A DNA stretch of 64,000 nucleotides, from positions 43,276,001 through 43,340,000 of the forward strand of contig OX638152.1 in NCBI GenBank assembly GCA_951804945.1, in the 5' to 3' direction. This document shows, piece after piece, positions 17,960 to 52,269 of the stretch. Position numbers and translations under genes: made by a program. The notes below the pieces were generated by a model, which worked only from the letters and a program-made list of their open reading frames with translations, ran no database searches and had not been told where the DNA came from. Each line of letters opens with the position of its first letter. Position 1 is the first letter of the stretch. The stretch is from Podarcis cretensis (taxonomy: Eukaryota).

Positions 17960-18670
17960 TTATTTATTTATACCCCGCCCATCTGGCTGGGTTTCCCCAG
18001 CCACTCAGGGCGGCATCCAACAGAACACTAAAATACAATAACCTATTAAACATTAAAAGCTTCCCTAAACAGGGCTGCCTTCAGATGTCTTTTAAAAGTC
18101 TGGTAGTTGTTTTTCTCTTTGACATCTGGTGGGAGGGTGTTCCACAGGGTAGGTGCCACTACCGAGAAGGCCCTCTGCCTGGTTCCCTGTAACTTGGCTT
18201 CTTGTAGTGAGGGAACCTCCAGAAGGCCCTTGGCACTGGACCTCAGTGTCCGGGCAGAACGATGGAGGTGGAGACGCTTCTTCAGGTATACTGGACCGAG
18301 GTCATTTAGGGCTTTAAAGGTCAGCACCAATACTTTGAATTGTGCTCAGAAACGTACTGGGAGCCAATGTAGGTCTTTCAAGACTGGTGTTATATGGTCT
18401 TGGCGGCCACTCCCAGTCACCAGTCTAGCTGCCGCATTCTGGATTAGTTGTAATTTCCGGGTCACCTTCAAAGGTAGCCCCACATAGAGCGCATTGCAGT
18501 AGTCCAAGCAAGAGATAACTAGAGCATGCACCACTCTGATGAGACAGTCTGTGGGCAGGTAGGGTCTCAGCCTGCGTACCAGATGAAGCTGGTAAACAGC
18601 TGCCCTGGACACAGAATTGACCTGTGCCTCCATGGACAGCTGTGAGTCCAGACCAGGCTGCGCACCTGGT
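17923..18670 (-). mobile_element. L2-clade LINE 3' fragment
   Basis: Encodes LDYCNALYVGLPLKVTRKLQLIQNAAARLVTG...LHWLPVRF...AFSVVAPTLWNTLP, with a (TTA)n tail. Near-identical to 22790-24190. Confidence 0.93.
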
Positions 18671-19552
18671 CTCTGATGTGGACAAGCCTTAAGTAACAGC
18701 CTTGTGAAGTAAATTTGGTAAAGTCTCTTCAAAGGAAGAAAGAGGTGATTGCATTTAGAATTAGACAACCACCTCTACCCAGTCAATACAAGCGACATTT
18801 TCTTACTGCTCTAATGCAGTCAATGTATTACTTTAGCAGTATGAAGATTTTTTAGCTCTGCTGGTTCCATATTTCTTTTTGTGCGTTCATGGCCCAGTCT
18901 AGCCCTTATTTATAACAGTACTGCTCACAGTTCTATTAAAAACTCCAGGATTTTCAATCTGTCTTATACTACCCCATCATTATCTCCCAGAATTAGCAGC
19001 ATTCTGGTAACTGGGTTAAATTGGACCATTACCCGTTACTATAGCAGCCAGAATTTCTTCTCTGGGTTGGTTAAGGCTATCGTCACAGGTAGAAGAGATA
19101 ACCTTGGCATGTCATATTTTGTGCTGTAATTAGTAAATAATAAAATATCCCTTGTTGCACAGGGTTTGGTTGTTTAAGAAAGGGCCAGGAGTTATCACTA
19201 GGCAGAACTATCTATAGAGATGAACACTTATTTTGATTTATCAAATATCTCCATAGATAACTTTATTGCTCTCATTCCTGCATTCAAAGGGAGTTATTTT
19301 CCTAATTTACTTGATGAAATTGTGCACAGAAGGTAATTTGGATGTGTGTTTCTTCTCAAACTAATAATTTGCTTTCGAATGGAAATAATTTCCTTCACAG
19401 CTTTGTTCTGAGGAAGGTCAGGTGATTTACCTGCTTCCCAAATAAAGATCATCAACTGAGATGAAATACAAGTCCTGCGTAGGTATCAGGTTAGAGAGCA
19501 AGGATATGAATGATAGTTATTGGCTAGTAGCAAAAATGTCGCTGCTATTTTT

Positions 19553-22789: not shown

Positions 22790-24190
22790 AGTCTCAAATC
22801 TTCCATTCTTGGGCAAGGTGATTGAGCGCGTGGTTGCTGAACAACTCCAGGCACGCCTGGAGGATGCGGACCATTTGGATCCCTTCCAATCGGGATTCAG
22901 GCCTCATCATGGGACTGAAACTGCCTTGGTCGCGCTGGTTGATGATCTCTGGTGAGCTAGGGACAAAGGTGAGAGTTGTTTCCTAGTTCTGCTGGATCTC
23001 TCAGCGGCCTTTGATACAATCGACCATAACATCCTTCTGGACTGTCTAGAGGGGCTGGGAGCTGGGGGCACTGTTATACAGTGGTTTCGCTCCTTCCTCC
23101 TGGGCCGTGTTCAGAAAGTGGTGGTGGGGGATGAGTGTTCAGACCCCTGGGCCCTCACTTGTGGGGTGCCTCAGGGTTCCGTCCTCTCCCCCATGCTTTT
23201 TAACATCTATATGAAGCTGCTGGGAGAGATCATCAGGGGGTTTGGACTGGGTGTCCATCAATATGCAGATGATACCCAGTTCTACCTCTCTTTCAAATCA
23301 GAACCAGTGAAGGCGGTGAAGGTCCTGTGTGAGTGCCTGGAGGCGGTTGGAGGATGGATGGTGGCTAATGGATTGAGGTTGAATCCTGACAAGACAGAAG
23401 TACTGTTTTTGGGGGACAGGGGGCGGGCTGGTGTGGAGGACTCCCTGGTCCTGAATAGGGTAACTGTGCCCCTGAAGGACCAGGTGCGCAGCCTGGGAGT
23501 CATTTTGGACTCACAGCTGTCCATGGAGGCGCAGGTCAATTCTGTATCCAGGGCAGCTGTCTACCAACTCCACCTGGTATGCAGGCTGATACCCTACCTG
23601 CCCGCGGACTGTCTCGTCAGAGTGGTGCATGCTCTAGTTATCTCCCGCTTGGACTACTGCAATGCGCTCTACGTGGGGCTACCTTTGAAGGTGACTCGGA
23701 AACTACAACTAATCCAGAATGCGGCAGCTAGACTGGTGACTGGGGGCGGCCGCCGAGACCACATAACACCGGTCTTGAAAGACCTACATTGGCTCCCAGT
23801 ACGTTTCCGAGCACAATTCAAAGTGCTGGTGTTGACCTTTAAAGCCCTAAACGGCCTCGGCCAAGTATCGTTCTGCCCGGACGCTGAGGTCCAGCGCCGA
23901 GGGCCTTCTGGCGGTTCCCTCATTACGAGAAGCAAAGCTACAGGGAACCAGGCAGAGGGCCTTCTCGGTAGTGGCACCCACCCTGTGGAACGCCCTCCCA
24001 TCAGATGTCAGAGCGATAAATAACTACCTGACATTCAGAAGACATCTTAAGGCAGCCCTGTTCAGGGAAGTTTTTAATCTGTGATATTTTAGTGTATTTC
24101 TGGTTTTTATGGAAGCCGCCCAGAGTGGCTGGGGAAACCCAGCCAGATGGGCGGGGTACAAATAATAAATTATTATTATTATTATTATTA
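22790..24190 (+). mobile_element. L2-clade LINE, 5'-truncated, with a nearly intact reverse transcriptase domain
   Basis: RT motifs VSNLPFLGKVIERVV, QSGFRPHHGTETAL, LLDLSAAFDTIDH, GVPQGSVLSPMLFNIYM and YADD. One in-frame TGA (22953-22955) and a frameshifting deletion near 23865. (TTA)n tail. Confidence 0.95.
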
Positions 24191-27553: not shown

Positions 27554-29421
27554 TCTTTTTTTTTAATAAAGTTTTTTATTTATACAACAAGAAAACACAC
27601 ACACACACAAATACCAAATTACACACAAATTACAAAAATAACCATAGACACATAATTTTCTTAGCAAACAATAAAACATCTATTGGTCTTAACACTAAAG
27701 ACCCAACCTCCCGTCTATTACATATTTCAAATTCATATTACTTATTGCCAATACACACTTTTATCATAATTAAACTTATTCTCAATAAATCTAATTTCTT
27801 ATATCTACCTTGCAACTATTACTGAAGTTCCTCGAATGCTGCAACAGAATTTAAACTACTATATTTATTTTTCAGCTATTCTTTGAAAACCTCCCTTTTG
27901 GAACAAATTCCTGTTTTGATTTATTCTTTATTTTTTCTGATAAACCATCTAATTCAGCATATTCTGTCAGCTTTTGGATCCAATCTTGTATAGAGGGGAT
28001 TTCATTACTCTTCCATTTTGCTGCGATCAAAACTCTTGCTGCCGTCGTCGCATATAAAAAGATACCCTTCCTCTTTTGTGGAATATCCAAATCTGTTATT
28101 CCCAGGAGGTAGGCCTCTGTTTTTTTATTGAAAGAGATCTTTAGCATTTTTTTTGCAGTTCTGCATGTATACTCTCCAAGAATACCTGTATTTTCCTACA
28201 TATCCACCACATATGGTAGAATGTTCCTGAGTCTCCGCATCTCCAACAATTACTTGACACATTTTTATACATTTTTGAAAGCTTCCATGGTGTTAGATAC
28301 CATCGATGTTGCATTTTTTGAAAGTTCTCTCTAATCGTGTAACAATTTGTGAATTTCCAATTGATCTTCCATAAATTTTCCCATTGGGCCATGGTTATTG
28401 AATGGCCAAAATCCTAGGACCACCTCACCATTGCCACTGTTACCTCCGCCTCCTTGACTGTCCAGTCAAGGAGGAGTCGGTAAGTTTTGGAAAGAGTTTT
28501 TCTTTTAGAATTTACAAGATCAGATTCGAATCGGGAAATTTCTGTTGAGAACCCCTTTTGTTTGTCAGATTTTTCAAATAACTGATGGTATTGGAACCAG
28601 TCTGAAATGTGTTCTCTTATTTCCTCAAAGTTTTTAAATTTTATTTGGTTATCTTCATTTTTTAGAAGTATTTTATATGTTGGCCAGCTTTCCTGAGTAT
28701 TTTTCCGTTTTACTGCTATGGCTTCTATTGGAGAAGTCCACCACGGGACTTTAGGCTCCATCAGGTCTTTATATTTTTCCCATACAGCAAAGAGTGACTT
28801 TCTTATTATATGGTTAGTAATTTTTTTATGAATTTTCGCTTTTCCATATATCAGGTAGGTGTGCCATCCCCAATGGTTGTCAAAGCCTTCCAGGTCCAGG
28901 AGGTCCGGATCCTGCAACATGCACCAATCTTTTAGCCAGGTGAAACAGGCTGCCTCGTAGTAAAGTTTTAGGTCGGGTAGGGAAAAGCCTCATCTCTCTT
29001 TTATGTCTATTAAGATCAGGTGTTTAATCCTAGGTTTCTTCCCTTCCCACAGGAATTTGGAAATTTCTCTTTGCCATATCTTGAGACAACCTGCTTCGCC
29101 CAGTATTGGAATCATTTGAAATAAAAAGATTAATTTTGGAAGCACATTGATCTTTATAATGGAAATCCTACCCAGAAATGTTAATTTTAGTTTACTCCAG
29201 GCTACAAAGTTTTTTCTAATCTCTAACCAAGTTTTGGTGTAATTATCCTGAAATAAGTTTATGTTCTTGGGGGTGATCCAAATACCCAAGTATTTCGCTT
29301 TTGAGGAGATTTTCAGGCCCAATATTTTTTCTAAGTCGTCCTTTTCTTCTGTGGTTACATTTTTAACAAGCATTTTTGTTTTTGTTGTATTCAGCTTAAA
29401 GCCTACCACTTCTCCAAATTC
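27554..29421 (-). mobile_element. L1 LINE, 5'-truncated ORF2 (pseudogenised)
   Basis: Encodes GFKLNTTKTK...KYLGI...GRISIIKINVLPKLIFLFQ, the zinc knuckle CWRCGDSGTFYHMWWIC, and AYLLG. 17-bp TSD TTTATTTGCAGTTTCTC (27537-27553, 29422-29438). Several frameshifts. Confidence 0.93.
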
Positions 29422-29644
29422 TTTATTTGCAGTTTCTCACTGTTCCTTACTGCTTTAATAATTATGAACTTATCTGTCAGTCAGTCATCAGCTTACTACA
29501 AATTTTAAAACATGCAAAAGAAATGTATTCCCCCCAAAAAATGGAAGATAGAAATAAGCATAACAAAAACCAAACAAAACCAACCTCTAAAAGGAACAGT
29601 AAATTACAATAACTGAGAAAGCAACCTCAGCATATAAGTTATAG

Positions 29645-29930
29645 AACCTGTTTTTATCAGCCAGGATGAGCAAGGATCCCACACACAGGTTGTTGCACAA
29701 ATCTGGCCAGGAACCTTGTCTACATCCTCAGGCTGCATCAGTTGAAATTCATCCAACACTGGGCAAGACTGTGCAATAGACACCACAGTGGAGTCAACTC
29801 CTGTAATAGTGAAGGCCAAGTCCTGGTGGATGCAAGCAATTTTATCCTCAAAATGCCAAAGGAAGTGTTGGTGGGGAAATGGTATTGCTGGCAAGTGTTC
29901 TTGGTAAACCATGATAAAGTTAAGCTGCAA
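29645..29930 (-). mobile_element. Old L2 ORF2 fragment (region upstream of RT)
   Basis: Encodes HFEDKIACIHQDL...FQLMQPEDVDKV...ATTCVWDPCSSWLIK, a characteristic L2 motif. Confidence 0.7.
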
Positions 29931-29983
29931 CTCATTTCATTTTAAAAACAAGCAACGAACCAAATTCATAATTGGAAAGAAAT

Positions 29984-31496
29984 TTGCCCTGCCAGACCTC
30001 AAACTTTATTATGAATCAGCAGCGTTCTGCTGGTTGAAAGACTGGCTGCTTCTTGAGAACACAGACATTTTGGACTTAGAAGGTTTCAATAATGCTTTTG
30101 GGTGGCATGCATATTTGTGGTACGACAAGGTTAAAGTTCATAAAGCATTTAAAAACCATATTGTCAGGAAAACATTGTTTAATGTCTGGATAAGATATAA
30201 AGACTTGTTGGAAAATAAAACCTCTAGGTGGTTGTCACCAATGGAAGCAAAAGCTCTTAAAAGACTCAATATGGAGGCCAAATGGCCGAAGTATTGGGAA
30301 ATATTGGAACAACAAGGAGATAAACTGAAATTGCAGAGTTTTGAGAAATTAAAAGATAAAGTGCGAGATTGGCTTCATTATTTTCAAATAAGAGAGGCAT
30401 ATAATTCGGACAAAAAAATTGGCTTCCAGGTGGAAAAATCAAAATTGGAAACAGAATTATTAGAACCCAAAACTAAGACACTATCAAGAATGTATAACTT
30501 GCTGTTAAAATAGAATACACAGGATGAAACGGTTAAATCAGCTATGATTAAATGGGCACAAGATATTGGTCATAATATTATGTTTGCTGACTGGGAACAG
30601 TTGTGGACCACCGGTATGAAATTTACGGCATGTAATGCCCTAAGAGAGAATATTATGAAAATGATGTATAGGTGGTACATGACCCCAGTCAAGCTTGCAA
30701 AAATCTATCATTTGCCCGATAATAAATGCTGGAAATGTAAAGAGACTGAAGGTACATTCTTTCACCTTTGGTGGACGTGCCCAAAGATTAAGGCTTTCTG
30801 GGAAATGATCTATAATGAAATGAAAAAGGTGTTTAAGTACACCTTCCTGAAGAAACCAGAGGCCTTTCTCCTGGGCATGGTTGGCCATTTGGTGTTAAAG
30901 AAGGATAGAACTTTTTTATGTATGCAACAACAGCAGCAAGAATACTTATCGCAAAGTATTGGAAGACACAAGACCTACCCACCCTGGAAGAGTGGCAGAT
31001 GAAGGTGATGGACTATATGGAATTAGTGGAAATGACTGGCAGAATCCGAGACCTGGGAGAAGAGTTGGTGGAAGAAGATTGGAAGAAATTTAAAGACTAC
31101 CTGCAGAAACATTACAAAATTAATGAATGTTAAAATGATGTTGGATTGAAAATAAGTGGTATTAGCAACAAAGTTAAAAAGAGTATGCAATAAGAGAATT
31201 GATAATGGGTGAAAACATAGAATTTTGACACGTTAAGATACAGAGTTAAGATAAACAAAAGAGGGTAAGGATTTGCTGATCTGATTATGTAAATGGGAAT
31301 ACAAAAAGGGAAGGTGCGAGGAGGTCAGGAAAATAAGGATATGAGTTATAAAGTTAGCAAAAGAATAATCTTTTTTTCTTTTTTCTTTTTGTTATTTTTA
31401 TTCTTAATTTTTTTGTATTATGTGTATTTTCCTGTTTTGTGCCTTTTCTTTCTTGTTGAATTTTGCTAAAACTTCAATAAATATTTATATGAAAAA
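29984..31496 (+). mobile_element. L1 LINE, 5'-truncated ORF2 C-terminus and 3'UTR
   Basis: Encodes FALPDLKLYYESA..., the zinc knuckle CWKCKETEGTFFHLWWTC and KPEAFLLG. AATAAA plus A tail; probable TSD AAAGAAAT (29976-29983, 31497-31504). Confidence 0.93.
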
Positions 31497-50118: not shown

Positions 50119-50327
50119 ACTGTGGGCAAAGGACATCAAAACTTCACATGACAAAAAAACCTATAGTGTAAGTAGGATGTGTTAATTTTATCTATATCAA
50201 TAGTGTGCTTTTCTGGTAGTCATCCAGAACACAAAGAATTGAATTACTGTGCATTTCAGCTCATTTCAGACCTAGAAAAACACATTTTTGATGTCCTTAC
50301 CCCACAATAAACACACACATACGCACA

Positions 50328-51153
50328 TGTCAGGGGTTCAGGAGCAGAGGCACAGGGAAGAGAGGAGATGGAGAGCGAAGGGGAAGAATCCGAGGGGAGC
50401 GTAGGAGAAGAGGACAGTGGACCGAGGGATTCCATGAGCCTCTCCAGCGAATTGGAAGATTCACAGAAGGGGGCGCCAGTGGCCAGGGGTAGGGGGTTCC
50501 CAAGGGGAACGCCCCAGGCGCAAGGGGGCAGCAGGGACTCCCAGAGCAGTAGTTGGAAATCAGGACCAGCTTCCCCACCAGAGCAGAGTGGGGGGGAAGA
50601 GTCCCAAGGATCGGGGGCAGTGCATTCCCCACCAGGGAGAGAAGATAAGGCAGGGCTGACCACACCTCCATCGGAGAGTCAGACAACGGAGGGGAGGTCA
50701 GATCCGGCCAGTATCCCGGAAGAGGGAAGCAGTGACAGAAGTAGTGTAACGGTCAGGAGGAAGGTCACTGGGTTGGCGCGAGAGGCAAGTTCAAATGTAC
50801 AGGAGAGCGGGACAGCAGAGAATGAGGATTGGGAACCGGGTCCTAAAGCCCGCCGGAGGGAGGGGGAGGAGCTAAGCGACTCAGCGTTGGAAGAGTCCAG
50901 AAAGGGCAATGCCCCAGCGGGCAGGAGGACCCAGAGGAGGAGAGAGCAGCGTAAAAGGTGGAGCAGGGCTAGGATCTTAAACTGGTGTCATAGGGGAGGA
51001 GACTCAGACGGTACTTCGCCGGTCTAGGGTTTAAGACGTAGAGCTGCGCGCTGCGGCTTTGAAATGGAAACTGAACCTCAATAAAGACTTTTGTACATAA
51101 CGACAGCCTAGCGTTGGTCCTCTGTGAGCTGGGACCTAGAGGCAGCTCTGACA
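50328..51153 (+). mobile_element. Young solo LTR (826 bp, Gypsy- or ERV-like)
   Basis: TGTCAG...CTGACA inverted termini, 5-bp TSD GCACA (50323-50327, 51154-51158), AATAAA at 51080-51085, CpGs retained. Confidence 0.92.
50368..51027 (+). CDS. LTR-encoded 219-aa acidic Ser/Glu/Gly-rich protein with an Arg-rich C-terminal motif (hypothetical)
   Basis: Uninterrupted ORF covering about 80% of the LTR, strong Kozak context (GAGATGG), frame open back to the LTR edge. C-terminal motif shared with the 38064 LTR. Confidence 0.5.
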   Translation: MESEGEESEGSVGEEDSGPRDSMSLSSELEDSQKGAPVARGRGFPRGTPQAQGGSRDSQSSSWKSGPASPPEQSGGEESQGSGAVHSPPGREDKAGLTTPPSESQTTEGRSDPASIPEEGSSDRSSVTVRRKVTGLAREASSNVQESGTAENEDWEPGPKARRREGEELSDSALEESRKGNAPAGRRTQRRREQRKRWSRARILNWCHRGGDSDGTSPV

Positions 51154-52269
51154 GCACACATCCATCAATACATGAAGTTGCATTGAAACACATAGAAAAC
51201 CTGTATTTGTGGATGTGTGGATTCTAATTAAACTTGGCACTGAGAAAAGAAAGAATTCGGGCTGACTATTCTGGCAGACATTTAAAAAAATTCTTATCAT
51301 AGAATTGTAAAGTTGGAAGGGACCCTAAGTATCATCTAGTCCAGCCCCCTATAATGTTGTCCTATATGGGGATTGAACCTGCAATCTTGGTTTTATCAGC
51401 AACTGAGCTTATCCTAATACATAACAAATATTCAATATTTTTAACTGTTTATACCTGAGGTCCCTTCCATGTGCACAAAACAAGCCTTAATTTGGGGGTG
51501 GGAGTGCATGCAGTTCTGTGCTGCCATGCAAGCCCTCTGGGCAGCATGCAGACTTTCCCAGTGGAAAGAGTTTGCTGGTATGGCCATTTGAAATTCTCAA
51601 GTCCCTCTGCACAGCAGGCTTTGCCTTGCAGTGGGCAGTGGTTTGGCACTTTAGCCATTAGGGACTGCTTTCCTGCGAGGAACTATGAACAGGCATACAG
51701 GCTTGAGATACCTTTGCATGCTGTGATGAAGTTCTACATACCTAGCAGTGCAAAGCCTTCCACTCCTAGTCTCTGTGTGTAACAGTTCACAGAACAGCAC
51801 GAAGGAGTGAACTTGTTCTGCTCATTCTTTCTTCAACCTGACCTAGCCTGTAAAGGAGATAAAGTCCTTTTTGCCTGACATCTGTTTCCAAAACAATGTT
51901 TCAAAGACCTGTCAAAAGCACATGCTGTGTCGTACTAATCTGAAAGATGCTGTGCTTGGTCAAGAAGTAGGGCAAGGATAAGTGACTCAAAATTTGTGCT
52001 GGTAGGTGGGGAGATACCCTATCACAATGACACAAGCTGGGGAAAGAATGACACAGCAGTGAATGACCAAATGTTGTGATGTTCTGCTTGCTTTCTCTTC
52101 ATTTTTCTTGCAAGACTAGGTCATCTGTTCCCCGCAATGGTCTCTGCACTTCAGGTGTTCATTCCTGAAGGCCTTTCGGGGTCAGTGGAATGAGGACAGT
52201 GGGCTTGTGGAGAGGGGCAAGTGGAAGTTCGTTTCTTTTGATGTAGAAATTCATATCCTGACTTTCAAA

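Follow-up and report, generated by a model that had tools for sequence, protein, structure and literature searches.

The open frame of a solo LTR of Podarcis cretensis is very probably the tail of Pol, that is, the 232 codons with which the pol reading frame ends in a young Ty3/gypsy retrotransposon family. The LTR lies in the window, by which we mean the whole stretch of 64,000 nucleotides of contig OX638152.1 that was analysed. The original prediction had read the frame as a stand-alone accessory protein similar to Nef, Sag or Rev. As the frame was found to be in phase with pol and to end Pol, it does not appear to be a separate accessory gene.

The solo LTR and its open frame

The LTR is a clean solo copy with the target site duplication (TSD) GCACA on both sides, as was originally described, and the stop-free frame from the second base of the LTR through the TAG (51025-51027), the ATG, the 219-aa product, a TTTAAG at 51030, the AATAAA, the PKARRR patch and the Arg-rich stretch were all located as claimed (Table 1).

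Table 1. Features of the solo LTR; positions count from the first letter of the window
Feature	Position	Strand	Remarks
Left TSD GCACA	50323-50327	+	
Solo LTR, 826 bp, TGTCAG...CTGACA ends	50328-51153	+	Young high-copy Ty3/gypsy family, subfamily A
Open frame, 232 codons + TAG	50329-51027	+	Very probably U3-coded C-terminal tail of Pol (integrase); upstream part missing in solo copy
ATG, G at -3 and +4, product 219 aa	50368-50370	+	Characteristic of subfamily A; conservation absent among subfamilies and in Podarcis Pol tails
PKARRR basic patch	50842-50859	+	KARR in 9/9 aligned tails; putatively NLS-like
Arg-rich end motif G-RR...RW...(I/L)L.WC	50920-50988	+	Sole predicted helix (low confidence); resembles the Pol end of the second family
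CTTAAA TATA-like box	50976-50981	+	30 nt upstream of self-primer; overlaps L-N codons; putative promoter element
Self-primer, 11 nt	51006-51016	+	Complementary to primer-binding site of full elements; first base is the presumed start of R
AATAAA polyadenylation signal	51080-51085	+	
Right TSD GCACA	51154-51158	+	

The LTR family of the window is young and abundant: all 40 scored DNA matches, out of 2,882 candidates, were 99-100% identical. When LTR matches were fetched from the genome, an exact 5-bp TSD was present in 25 of 30 loci and the frame was retained in 24, and in none of the 30 did a polypurine tract (PPT) or primer site adjoin the matched LTR. The length of the frame by itself only modestly exceeds chance and, the LTR being poor in T, counts for little as evidence. 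In the shuffle check which had been proposed for it, few dinucleotide shuffles of the LTR (4/1000) contained an open stretch of 232 codons or longer in one of the six frames, but 35/1000 mononucleotide shuffles did.

Two details of the predicted protein hold for the window copy but not for the family. The ATG indeed stands in a strong context, but it was found in 73 of 74 subfamily-A copies against 16 of 41 copies of other subfamilies. Similarly, the SxPASxPE units are repeated in the window, but the second unit lies inside a 21-residue insert that is absent from subfamily C and from outside relatives.

Elsewhere in the window, frames resembling LINE reverse-transcriptase fragments were noticed at 22956-24020 (+), 28417-29436 (-), 29908-30999 (+) and 18349-18774 (-), and long frames alone revealed no host exon close to the LTR. 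Some LTRs on different chromosomes have identical flanks and the TSD CATAC (L006, L019, L029; also L038/L039/L082/L114/L149), which means either that one position of another repeat was hit repeatedly or that the LTR spread together with that repeat.

Parent elements and the end of pol

Full elements were located by a pattern search for an LTR preceded by a polypurine tract, with a G-run and then ATGGA. The parent elements are ~6.7 kb long and code for gag (Ty3 capsid, zinc knuckle), protease (PR), reverse transcriptase (RT), RNase H (RH), integrase (IN) and a Tf2-type SH3 region. With gag followed by PR-RT-RH-IN, two LTRs, a PPT and a TSD, and without env, they show the features of a Ty3/gypsy LTR retrotransposon, and their closest relative in the PDB was Ty3 Gag-Pol (E 1e-137). 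The recommended search for full-length elements replaced the complex-retrovirus setting of the original prediction by that of a Ty3/gypsy retrotransposon. In 3/3 elements pol is in the -1 frame relative to gag with GGGAAAC in phase, a sequence signal only.

The primer-binding site starts 2 bases after the 5' LTR and is complementary to a site ~148 nt before the LTR end, the match being 10-12 nt in 19 of 24 rows (one of the 24 is not a primer site) and in 21/21 of a second element set. Six variants of the primer site covary with their self-primer partner, and this points to a transcription start at ~51006 (LTR position ~679), near the 3' end of the frame. With a start 7 codons before the stop, nearly the whole frame would be U3. 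The pairing of primer and primer site forms in the predicted fold, yet the z-score of the fold was just -0.40.

In its order of gag, putative -1 frameshift and PR-RT-RH-IN, in the position of its chromo-like domain after the integrase SH3 region, and in self-priming with the primer site located 2 nt beyond the 5' LTR, the window family is like the Tf1/sushi chromoviruses (sushi-ichi, Tf1, Tj1), in which the 5' end of the RNA serves as primer, according to the available text of PMC4600332 and bioRxiv 10.1101/2022.12.06.519325. Its apparent membership of this group rests on domain order, priming and the frameshift signal. It differs from them in that its chromodomain appears to be degenerate, with Pfam Chromo giving E 0.087 and 13.2 bits, below the cut-off of 25.1, at the expected place, and in that Pol continues beyond this domain through ~125-140 linker codons and then 210-232 U3 codons (100 in a second family, described below). 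Some copies are internally deleted, a truncated 5' LTR being directly joined to pol or to the 3' linker (L062, L066, L078, L079, L064), and in L064 both LTRs are cut down to ~150 bp.

In L074, a copy of subfamily A, RT, integrase, the chromo-like domain, the acidic linker and the PPT are joined in a single natural frame of 1,264 codons that ends at the stop in U3. In 13 of 20 young elements of subfamilies C and D, protease and the stop in U3 are linked by one unbroken frame, 1,556 or 1,563 codons long, and 17 of the 20 had the PPT/LTR junction in phase; among the first 100 loci listed, from contig C1 only, the sample took every D-type locus (9) and 11 of the 16 of C type, and it was not selected by frame. 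The LTR measures 759 bp in subfamily C and 784 bp, ~63% identical, in subfamily D. Furthermore, integrase together with the whole tail was seen in 9 of the 18 Podarcis-named proteins viewed, which are automated gene models, and three Podarcis proteins from the tail search were 51-55% identical to the tail.

Among A/B-type copies the junction was in phase in 11/36, namely 9/14 of subfamily A against 2/22 of the older subfamilies (B, A2, A3). The out-of-phase junctions always came from loss of G, in differing runs. True slippage in older copies is a more likely cause of these shortened G-runs than assembly error, since the youngest subfamilies keep full G-runs in 17/20 copies. All 25 departures from L074 in the PPT region among the 36 copies were deletions, and this region (L074:8873-8917 and other junctions) holds four G-runs, is G-quadruplex-like and also codes for GEGGRGGFEGG.

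A second chromovirus family, reached through an SH3_Tf2-1 profile search of the genome, has a Pol 52% identical to that of subfamily D. It is young, with LTRs of 405-435 bp and many 1,351-codon pol frames (L180-L199; e.g. L180:1621-7167, G000:C5:71.11 Mb); its chromodomain scored 39.8 bits, above the Pfam cut-off, and a self-primer of 11-12 nt was found in 13 of 17 loci with the LTR end located. In 14 of 20 loci, picked from 150 matches mostly for long open frames, the pol frame runs to the same LTR-coded end, and in the 11 of those 14 with an LTR pair found the stop is reached 300-327 nt into the 3' LTR. The 100-109 Pol codons within the 3' LTR end in an Arg-rich motif, RR..(S/P)RRE.RRR..VK.LLCW, which aligned weakly to the end of the window family (hhalign probability 13.8%, E 0.002, 28 columns), and no DNA alignment was obtained between the LTRs of the two families. 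This tail, compared within this genome only, gave dN/dS of 0.17-0.43 in 10/10 pairs for its LTR-coded part.

Selection on the frame

In a comparison of 7 natural copies of different subfamilies, dN/dS of the frame was 0.24-0.49, and its bootstrap upper limit stayed below 1 in all 21 pairs, which are non-independent and exclude L065, L075 and L078 because of internal compensated shifts. Given the mutation spectrum observed, a value of 0.84 would be expected under neutrality, and the remaining two plus frames gave 0.75-4.98 in the same comparison. The value of about 1 between subfamilies, which had been named as evidence against a functional frame, was thus not observed. Along Pol, dN/dS was 0.03-0.17 in RT/RH/IN, where dS was estimable, 0.21-0.46 in the linker and 0.32-0.37 in the U3 tail; in the first part of U3, far from the promoter and primer elements, it was 0.24-0.35.

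We also examined the variants within 51 subfamily-A copies. Those common to at least two copies had a dN/dS of 0.26 and no stops, and 38 of 71 were synonymous, which is inconsistent with neutrality (p 9e-7). Singletons had a dN/dS of 0.69 and 5 stops, and 28 of 93 were synonymous, which is consistent with neutrality (p 0.22); 13 of 15 indels within the frame shift it. The low dN/dS between subfamilies, together with private changes that look neutral, therefore indicates that selection works on the replicating lineage and that inserted copies decay. Host selection on solo copies was accordingly rejected for the pooled set; among the 29 top DNA matches alone, 22/58 singletons were synonymous (p 0.03). 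As the presumed start lies near the 3' end of the frame, a solo LTR is likely unable to express it from its own promoter. Hence, of the original suggestion that solo LTRs would spread a protein across the genome, the scattering of the frame stands but expression of its product from the LTR's own promoter is unlikely.

Across 6 copies, 19 residues of the last 45 codons did not vary; the codons of 10 of these had changed synonymously, as in AGG/CGG/CGT for Arg, and 4 positions swapped only K and R. The predicted selected coding frame with a conserved basic motif is borne out by these data. Some of the conservation of the end motif is at the DNA level, because the TATA-like box and the self-primer share nucleotides with its codons TTA-AAC-TGG and TCA-GAC. 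Between subfamilies A and C (L074 vs L129), dS was 0.12-0.27 in RT/IN but 0.45-0.49 in the linker and U3, which suggests that 3' modules have been exchanged.

Possible roles of the tail and precedents

The tail was modelled as disordered (mean pLDDT 49), in line with the original prediction, except for a low-confidence helix at residues 199-215 over the Arg-rich stretch, and its charge shifts from acidic to basic along its length. No Pfam family was found in the 219-aa product and no usable match to the tail in the ESM Atlas. A tail profile matched none of 177,635 PDB sequences at E up to 10, and against 1.84 billion representatives it gave 4 matches, two named Podarcis lilfordi and two unnamed Logan proteins.

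We propose that the frame probably gives integrase a disordered tail, the basic tip of which would serve in nuclear import or in chromatin or nucleic-acid binding. This role of the tip is argued by analogy with Ty1 integrase, whose long, disordered C-terminal half carries an NLS and a targeting domain at its tip (available text of PMC8487063). Ty1 is a copia element, as is the element of PMC4657000, its tail lies between integrase and RT and not in the LTR, and no homology is claimed. In the proposed mechanism, genomic RNA would start at ~51006 in the 5' LTR and prime itself, and a -1 frameshift at GGGAAAC would yield Gag-Pol. The ribosome would read PR-RT-RH-IN-SH3 and the chromo-like domain, the acidic linker, the PPT and U3, and stop ~20 nt into R. 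The tail would remain on integrase, which would end in ~350-370 mostly disordered residues, 210-232 of them U3-coded. LTR-LTR recombination would leave solo LTRs, in which the frame, being upstream of its own start site, would decay.

The closest precedent for this layout is provided by plant CRM chromoviruses. In CRM group A (CR motif; Beetle) and in beet Bingo the polyprotein frame extends into the 3' LTR, as it does in both lizard families, and the LTR-coded part of CRM holds a conserved motif tied to integration targeting, as described in the accessible parts of PMC3059260 and PMC3605345. However, the CR motif, likened here by description only, replaces the chromodomain, whereas the window family keeps a chromo-like domain upstream of the PPT; CRM is primed by tRNA-Met and the window family by its self-primer; and the frame of the window family spans all of U3 and the start site.

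A more specific proposal, which we regard as doubtful, is that U3 has been turned into a second integrase targeting module, in which the Arg-rich helix common to families with 52% identical Pol would steer or tether integration, in one subfamily to telomeric repeat arrays. If true, the CR motif of plant centromeric elements would have a counterpart in a vertebrate, and thousands of solo LTRs would be ready-made coding cassettes. PPT-flanked copies do cluster near chromosome ends, 8/34 being within 1.5 Mb (2.6% expected; ends of C1-C7) and the first 250 kb of C1 holding 9 of the 33 loci listed there, and these copies are often nested. Of the 10 subfamily-D elements examined, 5 are embedded in (TTAGGG)n arrays close to the start of a contig, some in one orientation and some in the other (L127, L130, L135, L136, L137). 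On the other hand, none of the 24 top LTR matches on C1-C8, which are young subfamily-A copies, was within 1.5 Mb of an end. End-targeting by subfamily A is thus unsupported, and retention explains the clustering of PPT-flanked copies as well as targeting does. As a separate observation, the telomeric 5-mer fits the apparent S-N-W-N-S target pattern of the window family.

Alternatively, the tail might be made within Gag-Pol and cut off by the protease of the element as a separate small basic particle protein, acting in RNA packaging, strand transfer or nuclear import. The long acidic linker with a few hydrophobic patches between the chromo-like domain and the tail would suit such processing, as would the faster synonymous divergence of tail and linker than of the core between subfamilies A and C noted above, with the module exchange it suggests. 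We consider it unlikely, as no cleavage site was identified and the described analogues (the CRM CR motif and the Ty1 tail) are treated as parts of integrase.

It is quite unlikely that the U3 frame is also translated alone into an accessory protein of the retroviral kind, with the junction ATG as start codon and an RNA that is spliced or begins internally as template. HIV nef and MMTV sag are separate U3 genes on subgenomic RNAs of Retroviridae, and HIV Rev has an Arg-rich, probably helical stretch with a Trp. The window frame resembles these in coding within U3 and in having such a stretch, but it is fused to pol, the tail profile found no counterpart in the PDB, and a simple pattern scan for a nuclear export signal (NES) was negative in all 9 tails. 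An ATG in good context (ATG GAT GTC) does follow the PPT G-runs directly in subfamilies A-D, and also stands at the junction in Podarcis proteins, which would permit a separate start; the GTAAG right after the 5' LTR resembles a splice donor, and 20/22 older-subfamily copies are out of phase upstream of the junction ATG. But where the window family has ATG at the junction and GT after the 5' LTR, the second family shows GTG and GC (GC-AATC), respectively, which weakens both the separate-start and the splice ideas. Moreover, the AAG of GTAAG is accounted for by primer pairing, L074 has no pyrimidine tract upstream, and the phase losses strike different G-runs in different copies. None of the sequencing runs listed as containing the sequence was an RNA run. 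Contigs from sequencing runs (three guessed to be RNA and one other) aligned on L074 gave no evidence either way, being blind to starts and levels: the 15 joints examined, with 98 more in the set, contained no skip from the 5'-LTR end to the PPT region.

Finally, that the tail has no specific job, selection merely keeping a stop-free, soluble read-through for a clean Pol end and the end motif being promoter and primer sequence, is very unlikely despite a tail dN/dS 3-10 times that of the enzyme domains, a variable tail length (100, 210, 218, 232 codons) and the overlap of end-motif codons with the TATA-like box and primer, for an early stop would be simpler, Arg is retained upstream of the promoter elements although first codon positions change synonymously and K and R trade places, and the first part of U3, far from these elements, is constrained as well.

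An integrase tail coded by U3 therefore remains our preferred reading. The LTR-coded layout itself has precedent; what would be new here is a vertebrate self-priming Ty3/gypsy lineage whose U3 appears to code for a selected integrase tail. A vertebrate LTR-coded Pol tail was not found in the literature searched, which included the available text of PMC3601003 and PMC6317226; Butler et al. 2001 on vertebrate Tf1/sushi elements may describe the layout. The finding accounts for stray genes that are annotated as 'hypothetical protein' in lacertids (P0005, P0006, P0038, P0043), and cautions that LTR ORFs are not to be taken as accessory genes before the full element is inspected. In this family the U3 of a vertebrate LTR would have to combine the tasks of a promoter region, a source of the primer and a sequence that codes for protein; its end motif offers a small, testable candidate for the nuclear entry or site choice of such elements.
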